Assembly (NCBI GenBank): GCA_018813625.1
Contig: JAHJBA010000057.1
Coordinates: 1 to 33,560, forward strand
Length of the DNA: 33,560 nucleotides
Source: Patescibacteria group bacterium
GTDB taxonomy: Bacteria > Patescibacteriota > Minisyncoccia > Phycocordibacterales > UBA9973
Direction: 5' to 3'
Shown here: positions 334 to 33,507 of the stretch, in pieces
How positions within the stretch are numbered: position 1 is the stretch's first letter
Layout of the letters: the number at the start of each line of letters is the position of its first letter
Program-made: the position numbers and the translations under genes
The notes under the pieces: model-generated
The model's database searches: none
What the model saw: only the letters and a program-made list of their open reading frames with translations
Told to the model about the DNA's origin: nothing

Positions 334-390
334 CTTTTTAAGTTTTCTAAAAATTTGCAATTTTCTCAAGCTTATAGTAAATTATAAGTC

Positions 391-813
391 GTGCCTACGA
401 TTAACCAATTAGTTAAAAAGAATAGAAAAACAACCCGCAAGAAGTCAAAGGCGGTTGCTTTGGCTCGTGGTTTTAATGTTTTAAAAAATAAACCAGTACA
501 TTTTCCTGCGCCATTCAAGCGTGGAGTGTGCACAAAAGTTACTACAACTACTCCAAAGAAGCCCAATTCTGCTCTTCGAAAGATTGCGAGAGTGCGTTTG
601 ACTAATGGCATGGAAGTGACAGCCTATATTCCAGGAGAAGGACATAACTTACAGGAACACTCAGTTGTTATGCTTCGTGGAGGACGCGTGAAAGATTTAA
701 TCGGAGTAAGATATCATATTGTTCGCGGAGTTTTGGATACGCAAGGAGTTGAAAAGCGTAGACAAGGCAGATCACTTTATGGAAACAAGAAACCAAAGAC
801 TGATAAAAAATAA
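391..813 (+). CDS. rpsL: 30S ribosomal protein S12
   Basis: GTG start; [10 protein letters not shown]..., [10 protein letters not shown] motif; first gene of the str operon order. Confidence 0.97.
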
Positions 814-4419: not shown

Positions 4420-4455
4420 AGCCTTTTGTTTTGACAACACGAGGCTTTTTTTATT
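4419..4455 (+). terminator. Putative rho-independent terminator
   Basis: AGCCTTTTGTT-ttgac-AACACGAGGCT hairpin followed by TTTTTTTATTT. Confidence 0.55.
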
Positions 4456-4457
4456 TG

Positions 4458-4525
4458 ATCCCGTAGTAGATTTTGATGATGCCCTTAAGGCGCGCTTTGC
4501 GCTTCATCAAAATTCACTACCGGAT
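4458..4525. repeat. Family C palindromic element, copy C2
   Basis: ATCCCGTAGTAGATTTTGATGA ... GCGCGCTTTGCGC ... TCATCAAAATTCACTACCGGAT. About 22-bp arms, preceded by TTGAT; the last T begins the TTGACA -35 box. Confidence 0.85.
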
Positions 4526-4552
4526 TGACATTGTTTTCTAATTTGCTATTAT
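4525..4552 (+). promoter_or_regulatory. Sigma70-like promoter upstream of tuf
   Basis: TTGACA (4525-4530), 16-nt spacer, TATTAT (4547-4552). Confidence 0.6.
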
Positions 4553-6414: not shown

Positions 6415-6544
6415 ATGAATCCCGTTAGAAGCCGCGATCGCAATTTAAAAATAGATAAAAATATGAAATCAAATATAGAAAAAATTAATAACATAAAACA
6501 TCAGATATGCGAGTTGATCGCGATCTGCTTCTAAACAGGATGAA
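6415..6544 (+). repeat. Family A start-codon hairpin element, copy A1 (between rpsJ and rplC)
   Basis: ATGAA|TCCCGTTAGAAGCCGCGATCGC ...~75 nt A-rich... GATCGCGATCTGCTTCTAAACAGG|ATGAA. Long inverted repeat with a duplicated ATGAA. Confidence 0.85.
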
Positions 6545-7156: not shown

Positions 7157-7284
7157 ATGGATCCCGTTAGAAGTCGCGATCGCGATTATAATGGAAATAA
7201 AAACATGAAAGAAGATAATAAAACACAAAAAAATATTGAAACTTCCGAAAATACCAGATCGCGACCTACTTCTAACGGGATGGA
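7157..7284 (+). repeat. Family A element, copy A2 (between rplC and rplD)
   Basis: ATGGA|TCCCGTTAGAAGTCGCGATCGCG ... AGATCGCGACCTACTTCTAACGGG|ATGGA. 14-bp perfect outer stem plus a 7-bp CGCGATC/GATCGCG inner stem. Confidence 0.85.
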
Positions 7285-7939
7285 AGCAAAAATTTACAAT
7301 CAAAAAGGAATTGAAAAAGGAAAAATAATTCTTTCAGAGAAGGTTTTTGGTGCTAAGTGGCGAGCTGATTTGGTTCATCAGGTCGTAGAAGGCATGCGTT
7401 CTAATAAAAGAGCTGGTACAGCGGATACAAAAGGTAGAGGGGAGGTTTCTGGAGGAGGAAAGAAGCCTTGGAAACAAAAAGGAACAGGACGTGCTCGTCA
7501 TGGATCCACACGAAGCCCTATTTGGGTTGGAGGGGGTGTTACCCATGGGCCTCTTGCAGAAAAGAACTATAAAAGGAAGATTTCGAAGACAATGCGTGCA
7601 CAAGCTTTATTTTCAGTTTTGTCAAAAAAATTAAAAGACGAGGAGATACTCTTTGTTGATTCTTTATCCTTGCCCGGAATTAAGACAAAAGACGCCGTGG
7701 AAGTAATGAAAAATTTAGCTAAGGCCTCAGGATTTAAAATGATCGCTGAATCAAAAAAACCTAAAGCTCTTGTGGCTCTCTATGAGAGAAACGAGAAAGC
7801 AGAAAAAAGTTTTAGAAATTTATCTCAACTTGAAATGGTTTTTTTAAAAAACTTAAACCCCGTAGATGTTTTGAATCATAGATATCTTTTGATAGAAAAT
7901 CCAGAAGAAAGTGTTAAGTTTTTAGAAAGTCGAGGTTAA
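7280..7939 (+). CDS. rplD: 50S ribosomal protein L4
   Basis: MEAKIYNQKG...; KPWKQKGTGRARHGSTRSPIWVGGGVTHGP motif. The upstream in-frame 41 codons (from 7157) are repeat A2. Confidence 0.88.
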   Translation: MEAKIYNQKGIEKGKIILSEKVFGAKWRADLVHQVVEGMRSNKRAGTADTKGRGEVSGGGKKPWKQKGTGRARHGSTRSPIWVGGGVTHGPLAEKNYKRKISKTMRAQALFSVLSKKLKDEEILFVDSLSLPGIKTKDAVEVMKNLAKASGFKMIAESKKPKALVALYERNEKAEKSFRNLSQLEMVFLKNLNPVDVLNHRYLLIENPEESVKFLESRG

Positions 7940-7943
7940 AAAT

Positions 7944-8016
7944 ATACTTGTCCCGTGCTAAATTTTTGATTACGGGGCATAAAGATGAAGATTATTAATA
8001 AAATTTTAGTACTGGG
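7944..8016 (+). repeat. Family B hairpin element, copy B1 (between rplD and rplW)
   Basis: ATACTTGTCCCGTGCTAAATTTTTGATTACGGGGCATAAAGATGAAGATTATTAATAAAATTTTAGTACTGGG, immediately followed by the ATG of rplW. Confidence 0.85.
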
Positions 8017-8292
8017 ATGATAACGATGAAAATAATTAAAAAACCAAGAGTTACCGAGAAGGCATCTTTCGTGGCAGAACAGAATGTTTACACTTTTGAT
8101 GTCCCAAAGTCTGCAAATAAAACGGAGATTAAAAAAGCAATTTTTGAACTTTATAAAGTAAAGCCAGTTAAAGTAAATATTTTAACAGTTCCATCAAAGA
8201 AGATTTTTGTTAGAGGAAAAGTTGGGACAAAGAGTGGTGGTAAAAAAGTTCTTGTTTATTTAAAAAAAGAAGATAAGATAGAAATTATTTAA
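8017..8292 (+). CDS. rplW: 50S ribosomal protein L23
   Basis: IIKKPRVTEKA... is L23-like; position between L4 and L2. The start could also be the ATG at 8026. Confidence 0.92.
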   Translation: MITMKIIKKPRVTEKASFVAEQNVYTFDVPKSANKTEIKKAIFELYKVKPVKVNILTVPSKKIFVRGKVGTKSGGKKVLVYLKKEDKIEII

Positions 8293-14730: not shown

Positions 14731-15303
14731 ATGGAAAAAACAAATGAAAAAAAGAATAATCGTCGGACTTCTTCTTTTAGTAAACCAAAACCTGAATTTG
14801 ATCAGAAAATTGTGGATATCCGTCGTGTAACTCGTGTGGTTGCTGGCGGACGTAGATTTTCTTTTAGTGTTGTATTGGTGGCGGGAGACAGAAAAGGATC
14901 TATTGGTCTTGGGTTAGGAAAGGCGGGAGACACCTCTTTGGCGATAAACAAAGCCCTCAGAAATGCTAAGAAAAATATGATAAAACTTAACTTAACAAAA
15001 ACAATGTCAATTCCGCACGAACTTTCCGCAAAATTTTCAAGTTCAAGTATAATTATTATACCCAACAAAGGACGTGGCCTTGTAGCAGGCTCAGTGATTC
15101 GTGACATTGTTAAGTTAGCTGGGATTAAGGATATTACTGGAAAAATCTTATCTGGCAGTAAAAACAAGCTTAATAATGCTAAGGCTGTTATGACAGCACT
15201 TTCTATTATTTCTAGCAAGTATTCAAAGCCCATATTGAGGGAAGAGGAGAACGAGAAAAATGTTTTGAAGGGCGATTTAGCAGAAGTCGAGGAAGATAAA
15301 TAA
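14731..15303 (+). CDS. rpsE: 30S ribosomal protein S5 (with terminal extensions)
   Basis: IVDIRRVTRVVAGGRRFSFSVVLVAGDRKGSIGLGLGKA motif; 190 aa. Confidence 0.93.
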   Translation: MEKTNEKKNNRRTSSFSKPKPEFDQKIVDIRRVTRVVAGGRRFSFSVVLVAGDRKGSIGLGLGKAGDTSLAINKALRNAKKNMIKLNLTKTMSIPHELSAKFSSSSIIIIPNKGRGLVAGSVIRDIVKLAGIKDITGKILSGSKNKLNNAKAVMTALSIISSKYSKPILREEENEKNVLKGDLAEVEEDK

Positions 15304-15307
15304 ATTT

Positions 15308-15379
15308 TACTTGTCCCGTACTAAATTTTTGATTACGGGGCATAACAATGAAGATTATTAATAAAATTTTAGTACTGGG
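15308..15379 (+). repeat. Family B hairpin element, copy B2 (between rpsE and rplO, in the usual L30 slot)
   Basis: TACTTGTCCCGTACTAAATTTTTGATTACGGGGCATAACAATGAAGATTATTAATAAAATTTTAGTACTGGG followed by the ATG of rplO. Confidence 0.85.
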
Positions 15380-15817
15380 ATGCAGATACATAATTTAAAA
15401 AGACAACATAAGAACAAAAAAGATCGCATGGTTGGCCGTGGAGGAAAACATGCAAAAACATCGGGTCGTGGAGGTAAGGGGCAGACCGCAAGGGCTGGCA
15501 ATAAGCGACGTCCGGAATTACGTGATATCATAAAAAAATTACCGAAAAACCGTGGATATAAATTTAATTCTTTTCAAATAAAACCGGTTGGTGTTTCGTT
15601 TGATAAAATAATGGGAGCATATTCGAATGGTGGGACAGTTGACCCTATTAGTCTACTTGAATTGAAGATAATAAGTAAAAAGAAAGGGATTGTTCCAAAA
15701 GTTAAAATTTTGAACGGCAAAAAAGACTTTAACTTAAAAATAAAAATTTCAAAGTGTTTTGTTTCTGATTCTGTTAAAAAAAAGATAGCAGAATTGGGCG
15801 GAGAAATTGAACTATAA
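15380..15817 (+). CDS. rplO: 50S ribosomal protein L15
   Basis: GRGGKHAKTSGRGGKGQTARAG motif; position before secY. Confidence 0.93.
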   Translation: MQIHNLKRQHKNKKDRMVGRGGKHAKTSGRGGKGQTARAGNKRRPELRDIIKKLPKNRGYKFNSFQIKPVGVSFDKIMGAYSNGGTVDPISLLELKIISKKKGIVPKVKILNGKKDFNLKIKISKCFVSDSVKKKIAELGGEIEL

Positions 15818-17099: not shown

Positions 17100-17164
17100 A
17101 CCTGGTAGTGAATTTTGATGATATTTAAATGCGTTTTGCGCGTCATCAAAATCTACTACCGGGT
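17100..17164. repeat. Family C palindromic element, copy C3 (arms in flipped orientation)
   Basis: ACCTGGTAGTGAATTTTGATGA ... GCGTTTTGCGC ... TCATCAAAATCTACTACCGGGT. Preceded by TTGAC; the last T begins the TTGATT -35 box. Confidence 0.85.
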
Positions 17165-17192
17165 TGATTATTTTCTAAAAAGTGTGTATTCT
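17164..17192 (+). promoter_or_regulatory. Sigma70-like promoter of adk; geometry predicts a leaderless mRNA
   Basis: TTGATT (17164-17169), 17-nt spacer, TATTCT (17187-17192), then 6 nt to the ATG at 17199. Confidence 0.55.
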
Positions 17193-17198
17193 TTTGAT

Positions 17199-17783
17199 AT
17201 GAATTCAAAAGCTTTTTTGTTTTTTGGACGATCGGGGTGTGGAAAAGGCACCCAAGCTAAACTCTTGGCAGATTTTTTAAGGGATAAAGGGAGAAAGGTG
17301 GTTTATGTGGAGACAGGGGGTCGGTTTCGAGAATTTATGAAAAAAGAAAGTTATTCTAGTCAATTGACACAAAATATTTTACATGAAGGAGGTTTGTTGC
17401 CGGTTTTTTTACCTATCTGGCTTTGGACCAATATTTTGGTTGATAATTTTTCTGGTGAAGAGGATTTAATTTTAGATGGATTATGCAGGAGAAAAGAGGA
17501 ATCAATGGCACTTGATTCTGCTTTTGATTTTTATAAAATCGAGAGACCGAATATCATTTTAATGAATGTCTCTAGAGAATGGTCTTTTGATAGAATGATG
17601 AAAAGAAAGCGCCCAGATGACACGCCGGAGAAGATACAAAATCGCCTAGATTGGTTTACAAAAGATGTTATGCCTGCGATTGATTATTTTCGTGAGAAGC
17701 CGGAATGTAATTTTATTGAAGTAAACGGAGAACAGTCTATTGAAGACGTGCACAAGGATATCATTAAAGCCTTAGGACTGTAA
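17199..17783 (+). CDS. adk: Adenylate kinase-like nucleoside monophosphate kinase
   Basis: MNSKAFLFFGRSGCGKGTQAKLL P-loop; position after secY. The track start at 17115 runs through repeat C3. Confidence 0.85.
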   Translation: MNSKAFLFFGRSGCGKGTQAKLLADFLRDKGRKVVYVETGGRFREFMKKESYSSQLTQNILHEGGLLPVFLPIWLWTNILVDNFSGEEDLILDGLCRRKEESMALDSAFDFYKIERPNIILMNVSREWSFDRMMKRKRPDDTPEKIQNRLDWFTKDVMPAIDYFREKPECNFIEVNGEQSIEDVHKDIIKALGL

Positions 17784-17856
17784 TACTTGTCCCGTATGAA
17801 ATTTTTGATTAAACGAAATAAAGATGAATACAAAAAATAAAAATTTTCATACTGGG
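17783..17856 (+). repeat. Family B hairpin element, copy B3 (divergent; between adk and the pyrH-like gene)
   Basis: ATACTTGTCCCGTATGAAATTTTTGATTAAACGAAATAAAGATGAATACAAAAAATAAAAATTTTCATACTGGG followed by ATG at 17857. Both arms changed in a compensatory way. Confidence 0.8.
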
Positions 17857-18537
17857 ATGGAAGAAATAATAATCATTTCACTCGGAGGTTCACTCATTAT
17901 TCCCGATCAGATAGATGTGGATTTTTTGAAAGACTTCAAAAATCTGATTCTTTTGCATATTTCACAAGGGAAAAAATTTATAATCATAACCGGCGGTGGA
18001 AAGATCTGCAGAAGGTATCAAGAAGTTGCTAAAGAAATTTCGAATCCCTCAAATGAAGACTTAGATTGGATAGGGATTGCTTCTCTTAAACTAAATGCGG
18101 AACTGCTCAGGGTTATTTTTAGTGAAAAGGCACACGAAAAAGTTGTTAGTGATCCACACCAGAAATTGTCTTTTGAAAAGCCGATTATCATTTGTTCAGC
18201 TTATAAGCCTGGAAGGAGTACGGATTGGGATACCGTGATAGTGGCCAAGAATGTTGGTGCCAAAAAAGTAATCAATCTTTCGAACATTGACTATGTTTAT
18301 GATTCTGACCCGAAGATAAACCCAAATGCTAAAAAGATAGAAAAGATATCTTGGGCGGAATATCGTTCAATTATCCCAAAAGAATGGAATCCAGGCTTAA
18401 ATACTCCTTTTGACCCTATTGCTTCAGAAATGGCTGAAAAAGAGGGAATGCAGGTCGTAATTATGAACGGCAAGCCAGTGAGTAATTTAGCTAAGTGTTT
18501 GAATGGCGAGAAGTTTCTTGGAACGATAATAGAATGA
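17857..18537 (+). CDS. pyrH: Amino-acid-kinase-fold protein, archaeal-type UMP kinase-like
   Basis: MEEIIIISLGGS..., ITGGGK, ...SDPKINPNAKKIEKIS... and ...GTIIE resemble archaeal-type uridylate kinases of ~225 aa. The start is chosen at the ATG that follows repeat B3. Confidence 0.7.
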   Translation: MEEIIIISLGGSLIIPDQIDVDFLKDFKNLILLHISQGKKFIIITGGGKICRRYQEVAKEISNPSNEDLDWIGIASLKLNAELLRVIFSEKAHEKVVSDPHQKLSFEKPIIICSAYKPGRSTDWDTVIVAKNVGAKKVINLSNIDYVYDSDPKINPNAKKIEKISWAEYRSIIPKEWNPGLNTPFDPIASEMAEKEGMQVVIMNGKPVSNLAKCLNGEKFLGTIIE

Positions 18538-20201
18538 ACGAAAAAAACGAAAAAAAAATATGTAAGACTTGTGGAAAGGATTTTGAAATAAGAAAAGAGG
18601 ATTTTATATTTTTTAAACAGGTAAAAACTGCGTCACCACTAGATTGTCCTGATTGTCGCATGGCGAGGCGTTTAGTGTTTCGGAATGAAAGAACTCTTTA
18701 TAAGAGAGCGTGTGATCTTTGTAAAAGAGATTTAATAACAGTTTATTCGCCAGAATCAGATTTTAAGGTTTATTGTCATGATTGTTGGTGGAGTGATTCT
18801 TGGGATCCAAAAAGCTTTGCGATGAATTATGATTTAAATAAATCTTTTTTTGAACAATATAAAGAGTTACAAAAAAAAGTTCCTAGACAAAGCATGGCAG
18901 CGGTAAATAATGTTAGAAGTGATTATACTAATGGTTCTGCGGAAAATAAAGACTGTTATTTAATTTTTGCTGCTGATTATAATGAGGACTGCATGTATGG
19001 TAGGTTGCTTCAAAGAGATAAAAATTGTCTTGATTGTGCTTTTTTGCATGAATCAGAACTTTGTTATGAATGTATTGATTCTAGAAGTTGTTTTAAGTGT
19101 ATGTTTTGCGAGCAATGTCAGTCATCAAGTGATTTGCTGTTTTGTTATAATATGAGAGATTCAAATAATTGTATTCTTTGTACAAATGGAAGACATTTAT
19201 CTAATTCAATTTTAAATGTTAAATATTCTAAAGAAGAATTTGAAAAGAAAAAAGCTGAAATTCTTTCTAGTTATGAAAATATTGAAAAAGCAAAAGAAGA
19301 GTTTTCTGAATTAAAGAAAAATACTATTGTAAAATATGCTTGTCAAACAAAATGTAACGAGGTTACTGGTAATTATTTACACAATTGTCATCAGGGAATA
19401 ATGCTTTATGATACTTATGATTCAAAAAACTGTTCTTATATGACAGATACCGAAAGTCCTATTGACAGTCAAGACTGTAATAATTATTATTATAAACCAC
19501 AATTTGGATATAACGTTATGGGAGCATTAGAAGGTAGTCAATTAAAAAATAGTGCTTTCGTTTTTTATTGTAACGAAGTTGAATATTGTGAAAATTGTCA
19601 TCATTTAATAAACGGGATAGGATGTAGCGCTATTCGCAGAGGGGAATATATGATTCTTAACAAACAATACACAAAAGAAGAATATTATAAGTTGAAAGAA
19701 AAGATAGAAGAACAGATGAAAAAGGAAGGAACTTACGGGCAATTTTTTCCAGCTGAACTTGCGCCGTTCGGATATAATGAAACATTAGCGCAAGATTATA
19801 TTCCATTAAAAAAAGAAGAAGCTTTGAAAAGAGGTTTTAGTTGGCAAGAAAAAATAACAGGTACTTATGGAAAAGAAACCATTAAAAAAAGCGAGATACC
19901 AAGTTCTATAGAAAATATAGATGAAAGTATTTTAAAAGAAATATTAGTGTGTGAAGAATGTAATAAAAATTTTAGAATTACTGAAGCAGAGTTAAGTTTT
20001 TACAAAAGAATGCATTTACCATTACCACATAAAGATTTTGAGTGTAGACATAAAGATAGAATGTTAAAGAGAAATCCACGTAAACTCTGGCATAGAAAAT
20101 GCATGAAAGAAGGTTGTAAGAATGAATTTGAGACAAGTTATGCACCTGATCGACCAGAGATTGTATATTGTGAGGACTGTTATAAAAAAGAGGTATACTA
20201 A
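18534..20201 (+). CDS. Cysteine-rich protein (555 aa) with homologous zinc-ribbon-like modules at both termini; function unknown
   Basis: The ATG overlaps the pyrH-like stop (ATGA at 18534-18537). N-terminal CKTCGKDF...CPDCR...CDLC...CHDCWW and C-terminal CEECNKNF...ECRHKDR...CEDCY. The central region is dense in C-x2-C. Confidence 0.8.
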   Translation: MNEKNEKKICKTCGKDFEIRKEDFIFFKQVKTASPLDCPDCRMARRLVFRNERTLYKRACDLCKRDLITVYSPESDFKVYCHDCWWSDSWDPKSFAMNYDLNKSFFEQYKELQKKVPRQSMAAVNNVRSDYTNGSAENKDCYLIFAADYNEDCMYGRLLQRDKNCLDCAFLHESELCYECIDSRSCFKCMFCEQCQSSSDLLFCYNMRDSNNCILCTNGRHLSNSILNVKYSKEEFEKKKAEILSSYENIEKAKEEFSELKKNTIVKYACQTKCNEVTGNYLHNCHQGIMLYDTYDSKNCSYMTDTESPIDSQDCNNYYYKPQFGYNVMGALEGSQLKNSAFVFYCNEVEYCENCHHLINGIGCSAIRRGEYMILNKQYTKEEYYKLKEKIEEQMKKEGTYGQFFPAELAPFGYNETLAQDYIPLKKEEALKRGFSWQEKITGTYGKETIKKSEIPSSIENIDESILKEILVCEECNKNFRITEAELSFYKRMHLPLPHKDFECRHKDRMLKRNPRKLWHRKCMKEGCKNEFETSYAPDRPEIVYCEDCYKKEVY

Positions 20202-20203
20202 AA

Positions 20204-20276
20204 ATACTTGTCCCGTACTGAATTTTTGATTACGGGGCATAAAGATGAAGATTATTAATAAAATTTTAGTACTGGG
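20204..20276 (+). repeat. Family B hairpin element, copy B4 (between the Cys-rich ORF and map)
   Basis: ATACTTGTCCCGTACTGAATTTTTGATTACGGGGCATAAAGATGAAGATTATTAATAAAATTTTAGTACTGGG followed by the ATG of map. Confidence 0.85.
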
Positions 20277-21047
20277 ATGGCAATAATAATTAAAACACCA
20301 GAGGAAATAAAAATAATAAGAGAAGGAGGGAAAAGACTCGCTACTGTTTTAAACAAAGTTAAGGAGATGGTTGCTCCTGGTATTTCGACTAAGGATTTGG
20401 ACGATTATGCAAGAAAGCTTATCAGTGAGATGGGAGACTATCCATCTTTTTTAAATTATTCACCCGATGGTGCCAGCAAGCCCTATCCAGCGGCTCTTTG
20501 CGTATCGGTTAATGATGAAGTTGTACACGGCATTCCTAACAAAGATAGAATTTTGCAAGAAGGAGATATCGTTTCTATAGATCTGGGATTGAAGCATAAA
20601 AATCTTTTTACCGACATGGCCATGACAGTTTCGGTTGGCGAAATAAGTTCGTCTTCAAAGAAGCTTTTAGAAACAACGGAGAGGGCATTGTATGTTGGAA
20701 TAAATGCTGTGCGAGCAGGAAATAGAATAGGAGATATAGGTCATGCTATAGAAAGTTTTGTTCGTCCACATAGGTATGGCATTGTAGAAGTTTTGGCGGG
20801 GCATGGTGTTGGTAAGGCGGTTCACGAGGATCCATATATTACAAATTTTGGCAAAAAGGGAATGGGGGAGAAATTAGTTCCAGGTATGGTTATAGCCATA
20901 GAGCCGATGATAAATAATGGAACTAAAAATGTGACCCTAGATAAGGACGGTTATACTTTTCGTACCGCAGACGGAAAAAAGAGTGCACACTTCGAGCACA
21001 CCATTCTTGTCACGGAAGGGGAGCCAGAAATCTTGACTCGAATATAA
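20277..21047 (+). CDS. map: Type I methionine aminopeptidase
   Basis: 256 aa; HGIPN, DxG...D, HGVG, EPM and EHT metal-ligand pattern. Confidence 0.96.
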   Translation: MAIIIKTPEEIKIIREGGKRLATVLNKVKEMVAPGISTKDLDDYARKLISEMGDYPSFLNYSPDGASKPYPAALCVSVNDEVVHGIPNKDRILQEGDIVSIDLGLKHKNLFTDMAMTVSVGEISSSSKKLLETTERALYVGINAVRAGNRIGDIGHAIESFVRPHRYGIVEVLAGHGVGKAVHEDPYITNFGKKGMGEKLVPGMVIAIEPMINNGTKNVTLDKDGYTFRTADGKKSAHFEHTILVTEGEPEILTRI

Positions 21048-29150: not shown

Positions 29151-30488
29151 CAACCGGACTTGGTTAAATATAGTATTTATGCGATTTTCTTCTTTGGCCT
29201 CGCCAATTATGCGTATTACTGGCTCAGTATTGGAGGGTCTAATATGAACCCATGAAGAGTCTGGCCAGTCGAAGCGTAGGCCGTCTAGGGTGTTTGTAGA
29301 TGCCTCTTTGAACTTTGCCTTAAGTTTCTCATAAAGTAGAGTTAGGTCGCCAGAAAAGGTAATTTTATCTTTTTTCATAAAATATTTAGGCAGGCTCTCT
29401 ATAATTTCTGATATATTTTTTTTCTCTCTTGCCATAAGCTCGAGAACAAGAGCAATACCGGCCAGGCTATCTCTGGCTGTATTTATTTTAGAATAAATGA
29501 CCCCACCATTTCCTTCTCCTCCTATGAGTGCGCCTCTTTCAATCATTTTTTCGACTACATTAGGTTCGCCGACTTTTGTTCTAAAAACTTTTTTATTGTA
29601 ATTATTTGCCAAGTCTTCACACATTTTTGAGGTAGACATATTTAAGATCACATCGCTAGGGTTTTTAGATAGAACACTTTTTACGGCGAGTGCTAGTGTA
29701 TATTCTTCATTTAAAATTTCTCCTTTTTCATTTGCGAGTACCAGACGGTCAGCATCGGGGTCCTGGGCGAATCCTATATCTGAATTATTTTTAGAGACTG
29801 CTTCCGCTAGTTGTTTTAAATTTTTTGCCAGTGGTTCTGGTTCGTGCGCGAATTCTCCATTTTGTTCTTCGTTGATTTGAGAAACTTCACAGCCGAGTTC
29901 CTCCAGTAATTTTTTTGTGATTGTACTGCCTGCGCTATTTATAGGATCGTGGGTAACTTTAAATTTTTTGCTTTTGATCAGGTTTACGTCTATATTTTTT
30001 AATACTTCTTTTATGTGTATCTTTTGATAGCTAGAATTGTCGCAAACTTCTTCCTCATTTTCTTTTTGTGAAAAATTTTTTTCATCTTCAATTAAATTTT
30101 TTCTATTTTCCTCGATTTTTTCTATTTCTTTTTGGGTGGCGAATAGACCATTTTTATTTATAAATTTAAGACCGTTATATTCTCTAGGATTATGCGAAGC
30201 AGTTATCATTATTCCTCCACCAAAAGAGAGTTTTCTTGCTAGAAGAAGCATCGATGGAGTAGGGATGATGCCGGCGTATTCTCCCTCTAAGCCTTCTTTT
30301 TTTAATGCTAATTTTATAGCTTTAAATATTTGTGGTCCGGTTTTGCGTGCATCTCGCCCGATTAAAATTTTATGGCCTCCTTGTTCTTTTATCATTTTTG
30401 CAAAAGCACGCCCAAAATCAAAAGCGATTTTCTCGTCTAAATCTTTGCCCCATATTCCTCTATATCCCGAAACATTCAATTTTGGCAT
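29142..30488 (-). CDS. glmM: Phosphoglucosamine mutase / phosphohexomutase family protein
   Basis: ITASHNPREYNGLKF phosphoserine loop; DPDADR; GGEGNGG. The gene symbol is tentative because PGM/PMM cannot be excluded. Confidence 0.8.
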   Translation of the reverse strand: MPKLNVSGYRGIWGKDLDEKIAFDFGRAFAKMIKEQGGHKILIGRDARKTGPQIFKAIKLALKKEGLEGEYAGIIPTPSMLLLARKLSFGGGIMITASHNPREYNGLKFINKNGLFATQKEIEKIEENRKNLIEDEKNFSQKENEEEVCDNSSYQKIHIKEVLKNIDVNLIKSKKFKVTHDPINSAGSTITKKLLEELGCEVSQINEEQNGEFAHEPEPLAKNLKQLAEAVSKNNSDIGFAQDPDADRLVLANEKGEILNEEYTLALAVKSVLSKNPSDVILNMSTSKMCEDLANNYNKKVFRTKVGEPNVVEKMIERGALIGGEGNGGVIYSKINTARDSLAGIALVLELMAREKKNISEIIESLPKYFMKKDKITFSGDLTLLYEKLKAKFKEASTNTLDGLRFDWPDSSWVHIRPSNTEPVIRIIGEAKEENRINTIFNQVRLIL

Positions 30489-30549: not shown

Positions 30550-30557
30550 CTTAGATG

Positions 30558-30947
30558 TGGAGATGGGGGGAATTGAGCCCCCGTGCAGAAGGTTTTTGTA
30601 AGGAAGTCTACATACTTAGCGCGCTTGTTTGTTTAAATTAAAAAATTATTAAGCGAGCGAAATATTTTTTAATCGATCCTCTATGTTTTGGAAGAAAGTC
30701 GAGGTATTCTTTTTCCTATCCCGATAATATTATGCCTTACCCTATATATCGGAAGTCTATAGGGAAGACACCAACTTACGCTAGAGCGTATGCTGGAGCA
30801 AATCCGAACGCATTACCGAAGTAAGGCGAACGAACTGCCTTAGTAGCTAATTTTGCAATTAGACATTTGAGCGAAGTTTTGCGAGATTGCGCTCATTCTC
30901 GGTATGCATCAATAACAAAAGGCCAACTGTCTATGCCTTGCATCCCC
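30558..30947 (-). ncRNA. ssrA: tmRNA (SsrA)
   Basis: Minus strand 5' GGGGATGCAAGGCATAGACAG pairs with the 3' ...GGGGGCTCAATTCCCCC-CATCTCC-A. This gives an acceptor stem with a G3.U pair and a T-arm. An internal frame ends ...GNAFGFAPAYALA-TAA (stop 30776-30778). Lies 11 nt downstream of smpB. Confidence 0.8.
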
Positions 30948-30958
30948 ATTTTTTGTTT

Positions 30959-31420
30959 TCAACGTCCTTTATATTCGCGCCTTACTTCTCTTTCCGTCTC
31001 GCGCTTTTTGATCGTCTCTCTCTTGTCGTGTTTCTTTTTTCCTTTCACTAAAGCAATTTCTACTTTAATTTTTCTGCCTTTATTATACACTGAAATTGGC
31101 ACTATTGTCAAACTTTTGTTTTTTTCGCTTCCGGCAAGTTTTTCTACTTCTTTTTTGGTCAGCAAAAGTTTTCTATTTCTAAGCGGATCGTAATCTTTCG
31201 GCATATTATTTGGCTGGTATGGTTGTATATTTGTATTGATTAAAAAAGCTTCACCTCCACGAATTATGACATAAGCCCCCTCGAGCGATATTTTTCCGCT
31301 TCTGATGGATTTAACTTCAACTCCTAAAAGCTCAATGCCTGTTTCGTATTTTTCGAGAATTTCGTAATTAAAATGTATTTTTCTGTTTTCAGCGTAGTTT
31401 GCCATATCCAATCTTACCAT
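30959..31420 (-). CDS. smpB: SsrA-binding protein SmpB
   Basis: ENRKIHFNYEILEKYETGIELLGVEVKSIRSGKISL... and the C-terminal basic tail. The start could be the internal ATG at 31405. Confidence 0.93.
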   Translation of the reverse strand: MVRLDMANYAENRKIHFNYEILEKYETGIELLGVEVKSIRSGKISLEGAYVIIRGGEAFLINTNIQPYQPNNMPKDYDPLRNRKLLLTKKEVEKLAGSEKNKSLTIVPISVYNKGRKIKVEIALVKGKKKHDKRETIKKRETEREVRREYKGR

Positions 31421-31452: not shown

Positions 31453-31461
31453 TGCTAATAT
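31453..31461 (+). promoter_or_regulatory. Extended -10 promoter (TGcTAATAT) positioned 6 nt before the first ATG of element A4
   Basis: TG at 31453-31454, TAATAT at 31456-31461, then CTACGC, then ATG at 31468. Confidence 0.45.
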
Positions 31462-31467
31462 CTACGC

Positions 31468-31595
31468 ATGGATCCCGTTAGAAATCATTCAGTTAATTGA
31501 AATTACGGGAAATAATATATTGAATTAGCTTGTATAGTCGTTTTTAGTAATTTAACTACGGAAATCTAAAGATTTCCTATTTCTAACGGGATGGA
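31468..31595 (+). repeat. Family A element, copy A4 (on the ftsH start codon)
   Basis: ATGGA|TCCCGTTAGAAAT ... ATTTCTAACGGG|ATGGA. 14-bp perfect terminal stem; the interior differs from A1-A3 and has the internal hairpin GGAAATC-taaa-GATTTCC. Confidence 0.85.
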
Positions 31596-33507
31596 TTTTA
31601 ATTTGCTCAACCAAAAAAAAGCTCCCAATAAAGGAAAGAAAGGAAAAGGTGGTTCAAAATTTTCAGGAAGCATAGCCGGAGCTATTTTAATTTTTATGCT
31701 TATAACAGCACTGTATTTAGTGGTGTCTGATAATACAAAAAATGTGCCGGAGACCCCGCTTTCTGATCTGGCGAAAAGTGTTTCAGCTGGAGAGGTTAAA
31801 AAGATTTTAGTTGAAGGTGAAAAACTTACAATTACTTATAAAAATGATGAAATTAAAAAATCAAAAAAGGAGGTAGAATCTTCTCTCTCGCAAACACTTT
31901 TTAATTATGGCGTTGGGCCTGAAGCTCTTGCAGGGACAGAAATAGAAGTAAAGAATGAAAGTGGATTTGGATATTGGCTCGTTAATGCTCTGCCTTTTCT
32001 TTTGCCTATTGCTTTTATTATATTTTTCTTCTGGTATCTCTCACGTCAAGTTAAAGGAGCAGGGATGCAAGCATTTACTTTTGGGCAGTCGAAGGCGCGT
32101 ATTACGGACCCGAATGATAAAAACAATAAGGTAACTTTTAAAGATGTCGCTGGATGCAAAGAGGCCAAGGAAGAGTTGAAAGAAATCGTAGATTTTTTAA
32201 GAAGTCCGAAAAAGTTTTTAGATATTGGCGCGAGAATTCCAAAAGGAGTGATTTTAACTGGTGCTCCTGGCACTGGGAAAACACTGCTTGCTAGGGCTGT
32301 CGCAGGAGAGGCCAGTGTTCCTTTCTTTCATCTTTCTGGATCAGAATTTGTGGAAATGTTTGTTGGCGTTGGAGCTTCGCGTGTGCGAGATTTATTTAAG
32401 CTGGCAAAGAGAGCTGCGCCGTCTATCATATTTGTGGATGAAATTGATGCCATTGGAAGGACTCGTGGTGGAGGTTTTGGGGGAGGTAACGATGAACGTG
32501 AGCAGACATTAAATCAGATATTAGTTGAAATGGATGGATTTGAACCAAATGAGAAAGTGATAGTTATGGCTGCCACAAACAGGCCAGATGTGCTTGACCC
32601 AGCCCTTATTCGCCCGGGACGCTTTGACAGAAAAGTGATACTTGACATGCCTGATAGAGCGGATCGTGAGGAAATTTTAAAAATTCATGCTGTTAAAAAA
32701 CCACTAGCTGAGGATGTTAATTTAAAACTGATTGCGGAGAGGACCCCAGGTTTTTCTGGTGCTGATTTGTATTCTTTGATGAATGAAGGCGCCATATTGG
32801 CGGCTCGTGAAAATCGCAAACAAGTTTTTCAGTTCGATCTCATCCGAGCAATCGAAAAGGTAATGCTTGGTCCCGAGCGTAAGAGTCATTTGCTCTCCAA
32901 AAAAGAGAAAGAAATTACAGCTTACCATGAAGCGGGACATGCCCTGATTGCTTCGGTGTTACCCAATGCGGATCCTGTGCATAAAGTTTCTATTATTGCT
33001 CGCGGGAGTGCTGGGGGATACACCCTTAAACTTCCTCTTGAAGAAAAACACTTGCAATCCAAGAAGGAATTTATAGATGACATTGCTGTGTCGCTTGGAG
33101 GATATGTGGCAGAAAAAATGATTTTTGGGGATGTTACGACCGGACCATCAAGTGATTTACAAGGGGCAACGAATTTAGCACGTGCCATGGTGACGCGTTT
33201 TGGAATGTCCGATGTTATCGGCCCTGTAGCGGTTACGGAGGGTGGCGGAAGAAATCGTTGGGCAGAGGTTCTGGAAAAAGAATATTCCGAAACAGTTTCG
33301 ACCAAGATTGACTCGGAAGTTTCAAAGATAATAGATAAGGGAATAAAAACCGCAGAGAAGATATTGTCAGAAAATAAGAAGGCCTTCATTGCCCTTGCTA
33401 ATAAGCTCATTGAAGTTGAGACGTTAGAACAGGAAGAGTATGAGCAAATAATAATTGCACACGGTATAACACCTAAGAAACTAGATAAAGAGGAGAAAAT
33501 TGCATAA
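31591..33507 (+). CDS. ftsH: ATP-dependent zinc metalloprotease FtsH
   Basis: 638 aa; [17 protein letters not shown] Walker A, DEID Walker B, SRH region, HEAGHAL zinc site and two N-terminal TM segments. Confidence 0.97.

Follow-up and report, generated by a model that had tools for sequence, protein, structure and literature searches.

A putative mobile hairpin element at the duplicated start codon of ftsH in a Patescibacteria group bacterium

The ftsH start and its empty sites

We analyzed a 33,560-nucleotide stretch of DNA from a Patescibacteria group bacterium (contig JAHJBA010000057.1; hereafter the window), a segment of a candidate phyla radiation (CPR) genome of the Paceibacteria/Nomurabacteria type with the str, S10 and spc ribosomal-protein operons, and report on a 119-nt palindromic element at the start codon of its ftsH gene. 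FtsH homologues of 635-644 aa, 84-92% identical, cover 100% of the 638-aa open reading frame (ORF); because of these lengths and the full-length alignment, we take the ATG at 31591 to be the true ftsH start. The following features make up the locus.

31453-31461, plus strand: extended -10 box TGCTAATAT of a putative leaderless ftsH promoter
31468-31472, plus strand: left ATGGA copy, read as the original ftsH start codon and 2 further nt
31468-31500, plus strand: 10-codon putative leaderless upstream ORF (uORF), MDPVRNHSVN and TGA, with codons 2-6 spanning the left arm
31472-31485, plus strand: left arm of the terminal stem, ATCCCGTTAGAAAT
31473-31591, plus strand: element body, 119 nt, TCCCGTTAGAA...TTCTAACGGGA, its final A being the A of the ftsH ATG
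31505-31510, plus strand: internal ACGGGA (L'), a potential alternative partner of UCCCGU in the left arm
31560-31577, plus strand: subterminal hairpin B (GGAAATCT-AA-AGATTTCC), with compensatory changes across its subfamily
31579-31592, plus strand: right arm of the terminal stem, ATTTCTAACGGGAT, containing a TAA 4 nt ahead of the ATG and base-pairing with the A and U in the AUG of ftsH
31591-33507, plus strand: ftsH coding sequence, 638 aa, delimited by homologue alignment

The -10 box is followed by a 6-nt spacer, CTACGC, and the left ATGGA, whose ATG opens the uORF and lies 123 nt before the ftsH ATG; the uORF terminates 90 nt ahead of the real AUG, and the right copy of the duplication, TGGA (31592-31595), falls within the ftsH coding sequence. 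An original prediction made from the DNA alone had described this layout, and we recovered it letter for letter: the -10 box, gap and ATGGA stand where it placed them, the left ATG translates into MDPVRNHSVN and a stop, and FtsH starts 123 nt downstream at the 3' base of a perfect 14-bp stem. The two 14-nt arms are perfectly complementary and are the sole zero-mismatch matches in the window. Allowing up to 3 mismatches, we counted 14 arm matches against 4.9 expected, a number reached by 0 of 100 shuffles. RNA folding of the ftsH region closes the terminal stem at -34.7 kcal/mol (z = -3.4).

Relatives carry the same site without the element. L001, whose FtsH is 91% identical, reads TGTTAACAT-CTATGC-ATGGATTTTAAT, and its upstream sequence (...TTTTTTATGTTAACATCTATGC-ATGGATTTTAATTTAC) matches that of the window minus bases 31473-31595. 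The site is likewise empty in L002, L206, L208 and L126, and is filled in the window and in L004. These clean empty sites identify the element as an insertion that duplicated 4-5 bp of its target. They are also natural versions of what had been predicted, namely that the element splits a -10/N6/ATG arrangement and that its removal restores -10/N6/ATGGATTTTAAT. In L004 the site is filled by a copy of the same subfamily, flanked by the duplicated pentamer ATGAA rather than ATGGA, and in each case the pentamer follows the gene's own second codon (MNFN... in L004, MDFN... in the window). FtsH identity places the window with L001 (91%) and sets L002, L004 and L206 together (94-95%); filled and empty members are both present in each group. 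Two independent recent insertions into ftsH, one in the window and one in L004, are the parsimonious reading, because a single ancestral insertion needs at least three precise excisions and a parallel change in both repeats. A more distant lineage, L143, carries a third copy, of another subfamily, at its ftsH ATG.

The promoter geometry at this site is conserved. The pattern TGnTAnnnT, followed after 6-7 nt by ATG, is found in 7/7 close relatives (including L001, L002, L004, L206, L208 and L126), and comparing their ftsH upstream regions, as had been suggested, we found the -10-to-ATG geometry kept in every one. Among 63 CPR lineages with an assignable ftsH start, strong -10 hexamers (at least 5/6 matches, with A2 and T6) number 31 in the six positions 6-11 nt before the ftsH ATG, versus about 1 per position elsewhere; roughly half of the lineages have a -10 box at this distance. 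These data lend in silico support to the predicted leaderless reading and to a leaderless or nearly leaderless ftsH mRNA as a trait of the clade.

Comparative sequence evidence shows the body at ftsH to be a non-autonomous palindromic mobile element that inserted into the apparently (near-)leaderless ftsH start and duplicated TGGA. We class it by analogy as similar to MITEs (miniature inverted-repeat transposable elements), given its terminal inverted repeats, target duplication, small size, multiple copies and lack of a transposase gene. It could instead be a vertically inherited cis-regulatory RNA of ftsH, such as a thermometer-like start-codon hairpin, and not mobile DNA: its fold is significantly stable, the stem takes in the AUG, and stem positions 12-13 and hairpin B co-vary. 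Such an origin is very improbable when relatives that are 91-95% identical variously have the element or show a clean empty site, when the 4-5 bp duplications have a variable NN, and when copies precede unrelated genes across phyla and belong to no Rfam family. A secondary regulatory use of the element is possible.

A dispersed family on start codons

To describe the family, we scanned species-representative genomes with the pattern TCCCGTTAGAA-N(80-110)-TTCTAACGGGA, which returned at least 120 loci; the counts below cover the sampled copies among the matches listed (135 complete copies, 124 of them opening genes). The listed loci come from Nomura-, Kaiser-, Jorgensen-, Yanofsky-, Zambryski-, Taylor-, Vogel-, Moran-, Doudna-, Levyi- and Kerfeldbacteria, as well as from Saccharibacteria, Kazan, Omnitrophota and one Planctomycetia bin. 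Copies are 78-132 nt long and hold ORFs of no more than 43 codons. Rfam 15 gave no family over the elements at the gathering threshold (the only hit in the window being tmRNA), with chance-level hits at E <= 10, and no family match was found in IMG/VR viral contigs or in plasmid and phage collections. A literature search by words and by arm sequence found no description of the family; its coverage was incomplete, so an earlier description is possible.

The last A of the element and the flanking TG form an ATG in 129/135 listed copies, and 124 of these 129 open an ORF of at least 60 codons. Where gene calls or Pfam domains exist, the ATG made by the element is the annotated or domain-consistent start, as for FtsH, uL3, uL4 and bL35; it is also the true start of a histidine kinase (HisKA) and of a response regulator in L004/L005. 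An exact 4-nt duplication flanks 92/135 copies, and the duplicated tetramer is TGNN in 87 of the 92, preceded by A in 85, with NN mostly AA, GA or AG and also CG, AT or TA. No sequence signal upstream of the target ATG was found among the listed copies. A few left flanks retain GTG while the gene side reads ATG, which fits a 4-nt duplication combined with the element's own terminal A.

The terminal stem, which the original prediction had singled out as the minimal conserved unit, indeed keeps about 13-14 bp family-wide: 13 bp pair, positions 12-13 co-vary, and many members extend the stem. The interior is oriented: YCTRY, and often a subterminal hairpin as well, comes before the gene-side arm, and few copies are reversed. 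As judged from the listed copies, the family sits almost exclusively on gene start codons and in a fixed orientation.

Reversed copies, with the subterminal hairpin at the distal arm, lie in L023 (1784-1904), L040 (5966-6087), L065 (3226-3345), L069 (5458-5578) and L026 (1887-2006); those in L023, L040, L065 and L026 have no ORF of the coupling kind described below. Tandem copies parted only by the duplicated tetramer (...CGGGA-TGAA-TCCCG...) occur in L014 (~7790), L092 (~6614) and L097 (~7693), which implies repeated insertion into an already occupied start codon.

We considered whether a target of the type ATGRA, together with lethality of insertions in coding DNA, could be the sole cause of the bias toward starts. 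A crude count of ATGRA/ATGAG sites, made with rough gene calling (301 start versus 1168 intergenic sites), predicts that about 20% of insertions would be at starts, versus about 92% observed, and we rejected this explanation. The gap calls for an enzymatic preference or a strong survival filter; selection may contribute a good part of it.

The 33.5-kb window holds four copies of the family (family A), the one at ftsH and three at the starts of ribosomal-protein genes.

6415-6544, plus strand: copy 1, uL3 start, ATGAA duplicated; left ATG at 6415, host ATG at 6540
7157-7284, plus strand: copy 2, uL4 start, ATGGA duplicated; left ATG at 7157, host ATG at 7280, 123 nt apart
28389-28514, minus strand: copy 3, bL35 start, between infC and rpmI, ATGAA duplicated; from 28514 to 28393, 121 nt

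At uL3, a 23-codon mini-ORF starting at 6463 stops at the TAA of the right arm, 5 nt before the ATG at 6540. At uL4, the frame is open from the left ATG across the element, giving an ORF (7157-7939) of 260 aa versus 219 aa from the ATG at 7280. The Pfam L4 model begins at residue 18 of the short form, and the additional 41 N-terminal residues may be genuine or may be an annotation trap.

Such ORFs recur across the family. The right arm carries the TAA in the motif TTC-TAA-CGGG-ATG, and the frame that ends there is open for a mean of 22.5 codons on the sense strand. The five control frames give 10-16, although the arms are the same in the antisense controls. ATG-initiated mini-ORFs of at least 19 codons in this frame are present in 49/124 copies, versus 1-7 in controls. 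The left ATG is intact in 90 copies, from which it opens an ORF to the arm TAA (33-43 codons, M-x-PVR...) in 24, an ORF ending at a TGA that overlaps the host ATG in 8, and an ORF running in frame into the gene in 2, that of uL4 being one. ORFs in the frame of the left ATG reach the arm TAA in 32 sense versus 6 antisense cases. The ATG-to-ATG distances fall into classes of 57, 35 and 32 copies, and the over-represented class, 1 mod 3, is that in which the left ATG and the arm TAA share a frame. Altogether, 88/124 copies have some coupling ORF, whose stop lies 4 nt before the host ATG or overlaps it, or whose frame is that of the host ATG.

We infer from this layout a translational coupling by termination-reinitiation and/or RNA unfolding, in which ribosomes on the coupling ORF would unfold the hairpin and so be brought to the host AUG. 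Coupling models find the effect strongest at very short stop-start distances, and rpmI-rplT provides a precedent for unfolding at a distance (PMC12548453).

A second feature of the interior is a segment 20-40 nt into the element that is complementary to the left arm and could act as a decoy for it. Complementarity of at least 5 bp is found in 36/124 sense versus 3/124 antisense copies. The decoy is commoner in copies without a coupling ORF (19/36 versus 17/88, p = 4e-4), and it is present in both ftsH copies.

The family also bears on a further proposal of the original prediction, that the initiating ribosome hops from the left AUG-GA across the closed hairpin to the identical AUG-GA, in the manner of T4 gene 60. 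The stem does bring the identical AUGGA copies side by side. Their identity is fully explained as the target duplication, TGNN in 87/92 exact cases with many different NN, and the hallmarks of gene 60 are absent: the frame continues for 10 codons with no stop after the would-be take-off codon, the gap is 123 nt versus 50 nt, and the ORFs of the family instead terminate beside the host AUG. We regard hopping as scarcely credible.

Expression of ftsH behind the element

An SD (Shine-Dalgarno)-like tetramer precedes 1/38 genes in the window, versus 13.6% of random 15-mers, and SD-independent internal initiation appears to be the norm in this genome. With so few SD-like signals, an exotic route to ftsH expression is in principle unneeded. 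Leaderless-type geometry is also seen at 27180 (GGTATATAAT-TAAAAT-ATG, window 27160-27182) and before the rpsL GTG at 391 (TTGCAA-N17-TAAATT-N7-GTG, window 360-393), and leaderless first cistrons may be common in the window genome.

How ftsH is expressed is the least certain part of our reading, and the scheme that we infer is as follows. Transcription would still begin at A31468. A 70S ribosome would load on the 5'-terminal AUG during RNA synthesis and translate the 10-codon uORF, covering the left arm. Translation of the uORF and the decoy ACGGGA (31505-31510) would for some time keep both the true AUG and the right arm unpaired, and SD-independent initiation at the true AUG could occur in that interval; at equilibrium the stem would close. 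In minimum-energy folds of the nascent RNA, the left arm pairs with L' as long as the right arm is still to be transcribed (-8.6 kcal/mol for the first 48-63 nt). With the right arm present, closing the stem beats the decoy state by 11.5 kcal/mol (-34.7 versus -23.2), and when the left arm is left out, the AUG region is predicted to have no significant structure. Most likely, the element would lower ftsH translation or make it dependent on the uORF.

One alternative is an internal promoter. In this case, TATAGT (31533-31538) directs a start at about 31545 and a transcript without the left arm, so that the right arm and the AUG are never sequestered and the old promoter yields only uORF RNA. 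The hexamer matches at 5/6 positions, including the A of position 2 and the T of position 6, and lies in a segment, TATAGTCG, common to four subfamily copies about 52 nt from the host ATG; an RNA starting past the left arm has no significant structure at the AUG, and across the family a perfect TATAAT is found in 21 sense versus 11 antisense copies. Yet TATAGT has neither a -35 box nor a proper TGn extension, a promoter scan was blank on the plus strand inside the element, the hexamer is absent from the independent L004 ftsH copy and from 8/12 subfamily members, and copies with any -10-like hexamer are as frequent in antisense (87) as in sense (86). This origin of the transcript is possible but doubtful. 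An outward promoter borne by the element was also rejected as a general function, the right arm having no usable -10 at the right distance, and is kept as a minor rival only.

Alternatively, an endonuclease, RNase III or another, could cut near the hairpin base and leave an mRNA with a (near-)5'-terminal AUG to be read as leaderless. RNase III cleaves the paired inverted repeats of the Correia elements of Neisseria, and here the terminal stem is a perfect 14 bp, many family members lengthen it, and the host AUG is always at its 3' base. However, 14 bp is short for RNase III, which cuts within helices and not at the last base pair; the operon-internal uL3, uL4 and bL35 copies would all need to become leaderless; and the enrichment of coupling ORFs would be pointless if the hairpin were simply cut off. 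We consider cleavage unlikely.

Several points weigh against a mobile element whose own uORF and decoy help ftsH to be translated. The closed stem outweighs the decoy state by 11.5 kcal/mol, and an unpaired toehold would allow fast strand displacement, so that protection of the true AUG would be only transient. Once formed, a hairpin 5 nt after the 5'-terminal AUG could hinder leaderless 70S loading. The ftsH copy itself has no coupling ORF, as no ATG-initiated ORF in it reaches the arm TAA. At the co-varying stem positions, G-U and A-C combinations are equally frequent (7 versus 7), a ratio that does not tell which strand is selected, nor RNA from DNA. Part of the start-codon bias could reflect survival and not targeting. 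Finally, a search of 1.4 Mb of loci gave no autonomous element or transposase between matching arms spaced by 250-5000 nt; arm pairs at such distances occur only between separate short copies. With these points counted, a mobile element at the ftsH start, belonging to a family with coupling ORFs and leaving initiation to be aided by the uORF and decoy, is in our judgment a fairly probable explanation of the whole.

Surroundings, wider meaning and known systems

Upstream of ftsH, the window carries a block of minus-strand genes.

Minus strand: rplT-rpmI-infC, phosphoglucomutase, tmRNA and smpB
30555-30947, minus strand: tmRNA gene (Rfam, 113.8 bits)
30959-31405, minus strand: smpB, divergent neighbor of ftsH, in the 148-aa form that agrees with relatives

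The listed smpB ORF begins 5 codons earlier, at 31420, and the divergent smpB/ftsH arrangement is also kept in relatives. Inside the smpB coding sequence lies a perfect sigma-70 consensus promoter (TTGACA-18-TATAAT, 31082-31111, minus strand), about 135 nt upstream of the tmRNA gene and presumably the ssrA promoter. Phosphoglucomutase is one ORF of 448-450 aa in the window (29142-30488) and in L206, and is split into two ORFs (135 aa and about 304 aa) in L002 (6024-7342), L004 (7084-8399) and L208; the split may stem from a frameshift, be programmed or be due to faulty assembly.

Two further hairpin families are present in the window.

7940-8019, 15303-15382, 17779-17858 and 20200-20279: second family, (ATAC)TTG-TCCCGTAC...GTACTGGGA-TG
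4455-4533, 29082-29149, 17115-17190 and 1825-1876, and L034 1795-1864: third family, TCCCGTAGTAG...CTACCGGA, with duplicated TTGA flanks

In the second family, the last A and TG form the start codon of uL23, uL15, a UMP-kinase-like gene and methionine aminopeptidase (map), and the element carries a mini-ORF, MKIINKILVLG, whose stop TGA overlaps the host ATG (ATGA) at uL23; at map the frame of the mini-ORF stops 8 nt past the ATG. The third family appears, from its flanks, to sit on -35 boxes or TTG starts and not on ATG: at 4533 its right copy makes TTGACA-N16-TATTAT upstream of tuf, and at 29082 (minus strand) TTGACT-N17-TAAACT precedes infC.

Whether Patescibacteria and Omnitrophota host a superfamily of mobile hairpins with a start-codon niche, defined by insertion at ATGNN, a rebuilt ATG (even GTG to ATG), fixed orientation and devices for handing over ribosomes, is to us about an even bet. 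The hand-over devices would be the ORFs running from the retained start to a UAA 4 nt before the host AUG, the relay mini-ORFs, and the decoy for the 5' arm. For a bacterial transposable element, such a way of life appears to be undescribed. It would mean that a selfish element lives at the start codons of the essential genes for FtsH, uL3, uL4 and bL35, although these genomes have hardly any spare DNA, and is tolerated by duplicating the start codon and apparently passing ribosomes on. The elements would then act as mobile devices that couple or dampen the translation of essential genes (ribosomal proteins, FtsH), and would imply either a transposase whose specificity is start-codon-like or survival filtering of a very strong kind.

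Such elements would be natural experiments on translation initiation in the mostly uncultured CPR, here in the absence of Shine-Dalgarno signals and with first cistrons that appear to be leaderless. They also pose an annotation risk, as gene callers may choose the wrong ATG or add false N-termini of about 40 residues, as in the 260-aa uL4 ORF. An enzymatic target specificity would make the transposase interesting for biotechnology; the coupling design, should it work, would be a natural counterpart of engineered bicistronic translation-initiation cassettes.

Two classes of known elements were considered and rejected. In integron attC sites the order of the core is the reverse of that found here (RYYYAAC in the 5' arm and GTTRRRY in the 3' arm, versus GTTAGAA in the 5' arm and TTCTAAC in the 3' arm); moreover, comparison with empty sites shows only the hairpin to be inserted, and the element is found in ribosomal-protein operons and at ftsH, not at a cassette end. 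REP/REPIN elements with their RAYT, and the PATEs of IS200/IS605, resemble the family as widespread extragenic hairpins with co-varying arms, a subterminal hairpin and a strong orientation bias. They make no duplication and insert 3' of a fixed tetra- or pentanucleotide, in contrast to the variable TGNN that is duplicated here.

L206 (4928-5596; also L207) encodes a 222-aa Y1_Tnp (PF01797) protein between an LDcluster4 gene and rplT (L206 4880-5610). The gene is flanked by inverted ATCGAGGGTAGTCCTCGAT (palindrome GGGTAGTCC), unrelated to TCCCGTTAGAA and not dispersed, and the unit is RAYT/IS200-like. A cognate Y1 transposase flanked by the family repeats was not found, this Y1_Tnp gene with its unrelated flanks being the only one seen.

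Bypassing in T4 gene 60 and the mitochondrial byp elements shares with the ftsH locus identical codons flanking a structured mRNA insert. Unlike those cases, the take-off codon is here not followed by a stop, the insert measures 123 nt, transposition accounts for the identical flanks, and the layout in the family is one of termination-reinitiation. A take-off signal in the nascent peptide is conceptually at odds with an initiating ribosome, which has as yet made no peptide. MIRU (mycobacterial interspersed repetitive units) are intercistronic repeats whose small ORFs reportedly overlap or abut the flanking stop and start codons, and are said to preserve translational coupling. An ORF of that type, its stop abutting the start, is found in 88/124 family copies and not in the ftsH copy, where the stop is 90 nt upstream. 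MIRU differ as tandem direct repeats of 40-100 bp without a palindrome, terminal inverted repeats or a duplication of a target or start codon.

The Rickettsia palindromic elements (RPE) are likewise mobile palindromes of about 100-150 bp in reduced genomes, compatible with translation in expressed genes, as is our in-frame uL4 copy. RPE insert in frame within coding sequences and are translated, whereas the present elements duplicate a start codon and mostly stop before the host AUG. In the Bacillus cereus group, bcr1 is a non-autonomous element of about 155 bp that duplicates TTTAT, is transcribed and has a predicted stable fold; its target is not a start codon, and it is without coupling ORFs.

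The Correia elements (CREE/NEMIS), MITEs of Neisseria, share with the family a length of about 100-155 bp, terminal inverted repeats that form a long hairpin, the lack of transposase coding, many copies near genes and co-transcribed with them, a short specific target duplication, and a hairpin that affects the fate of the mRNA. They belong to a different phylum, have no sequence similarity to the present family, duplicate TA and insert between genes rather than at start codons. The known effects of Correia elements are promoters and RNase III cleavage, whereas built-in frames that end at the host AUG are a feature of the present family.

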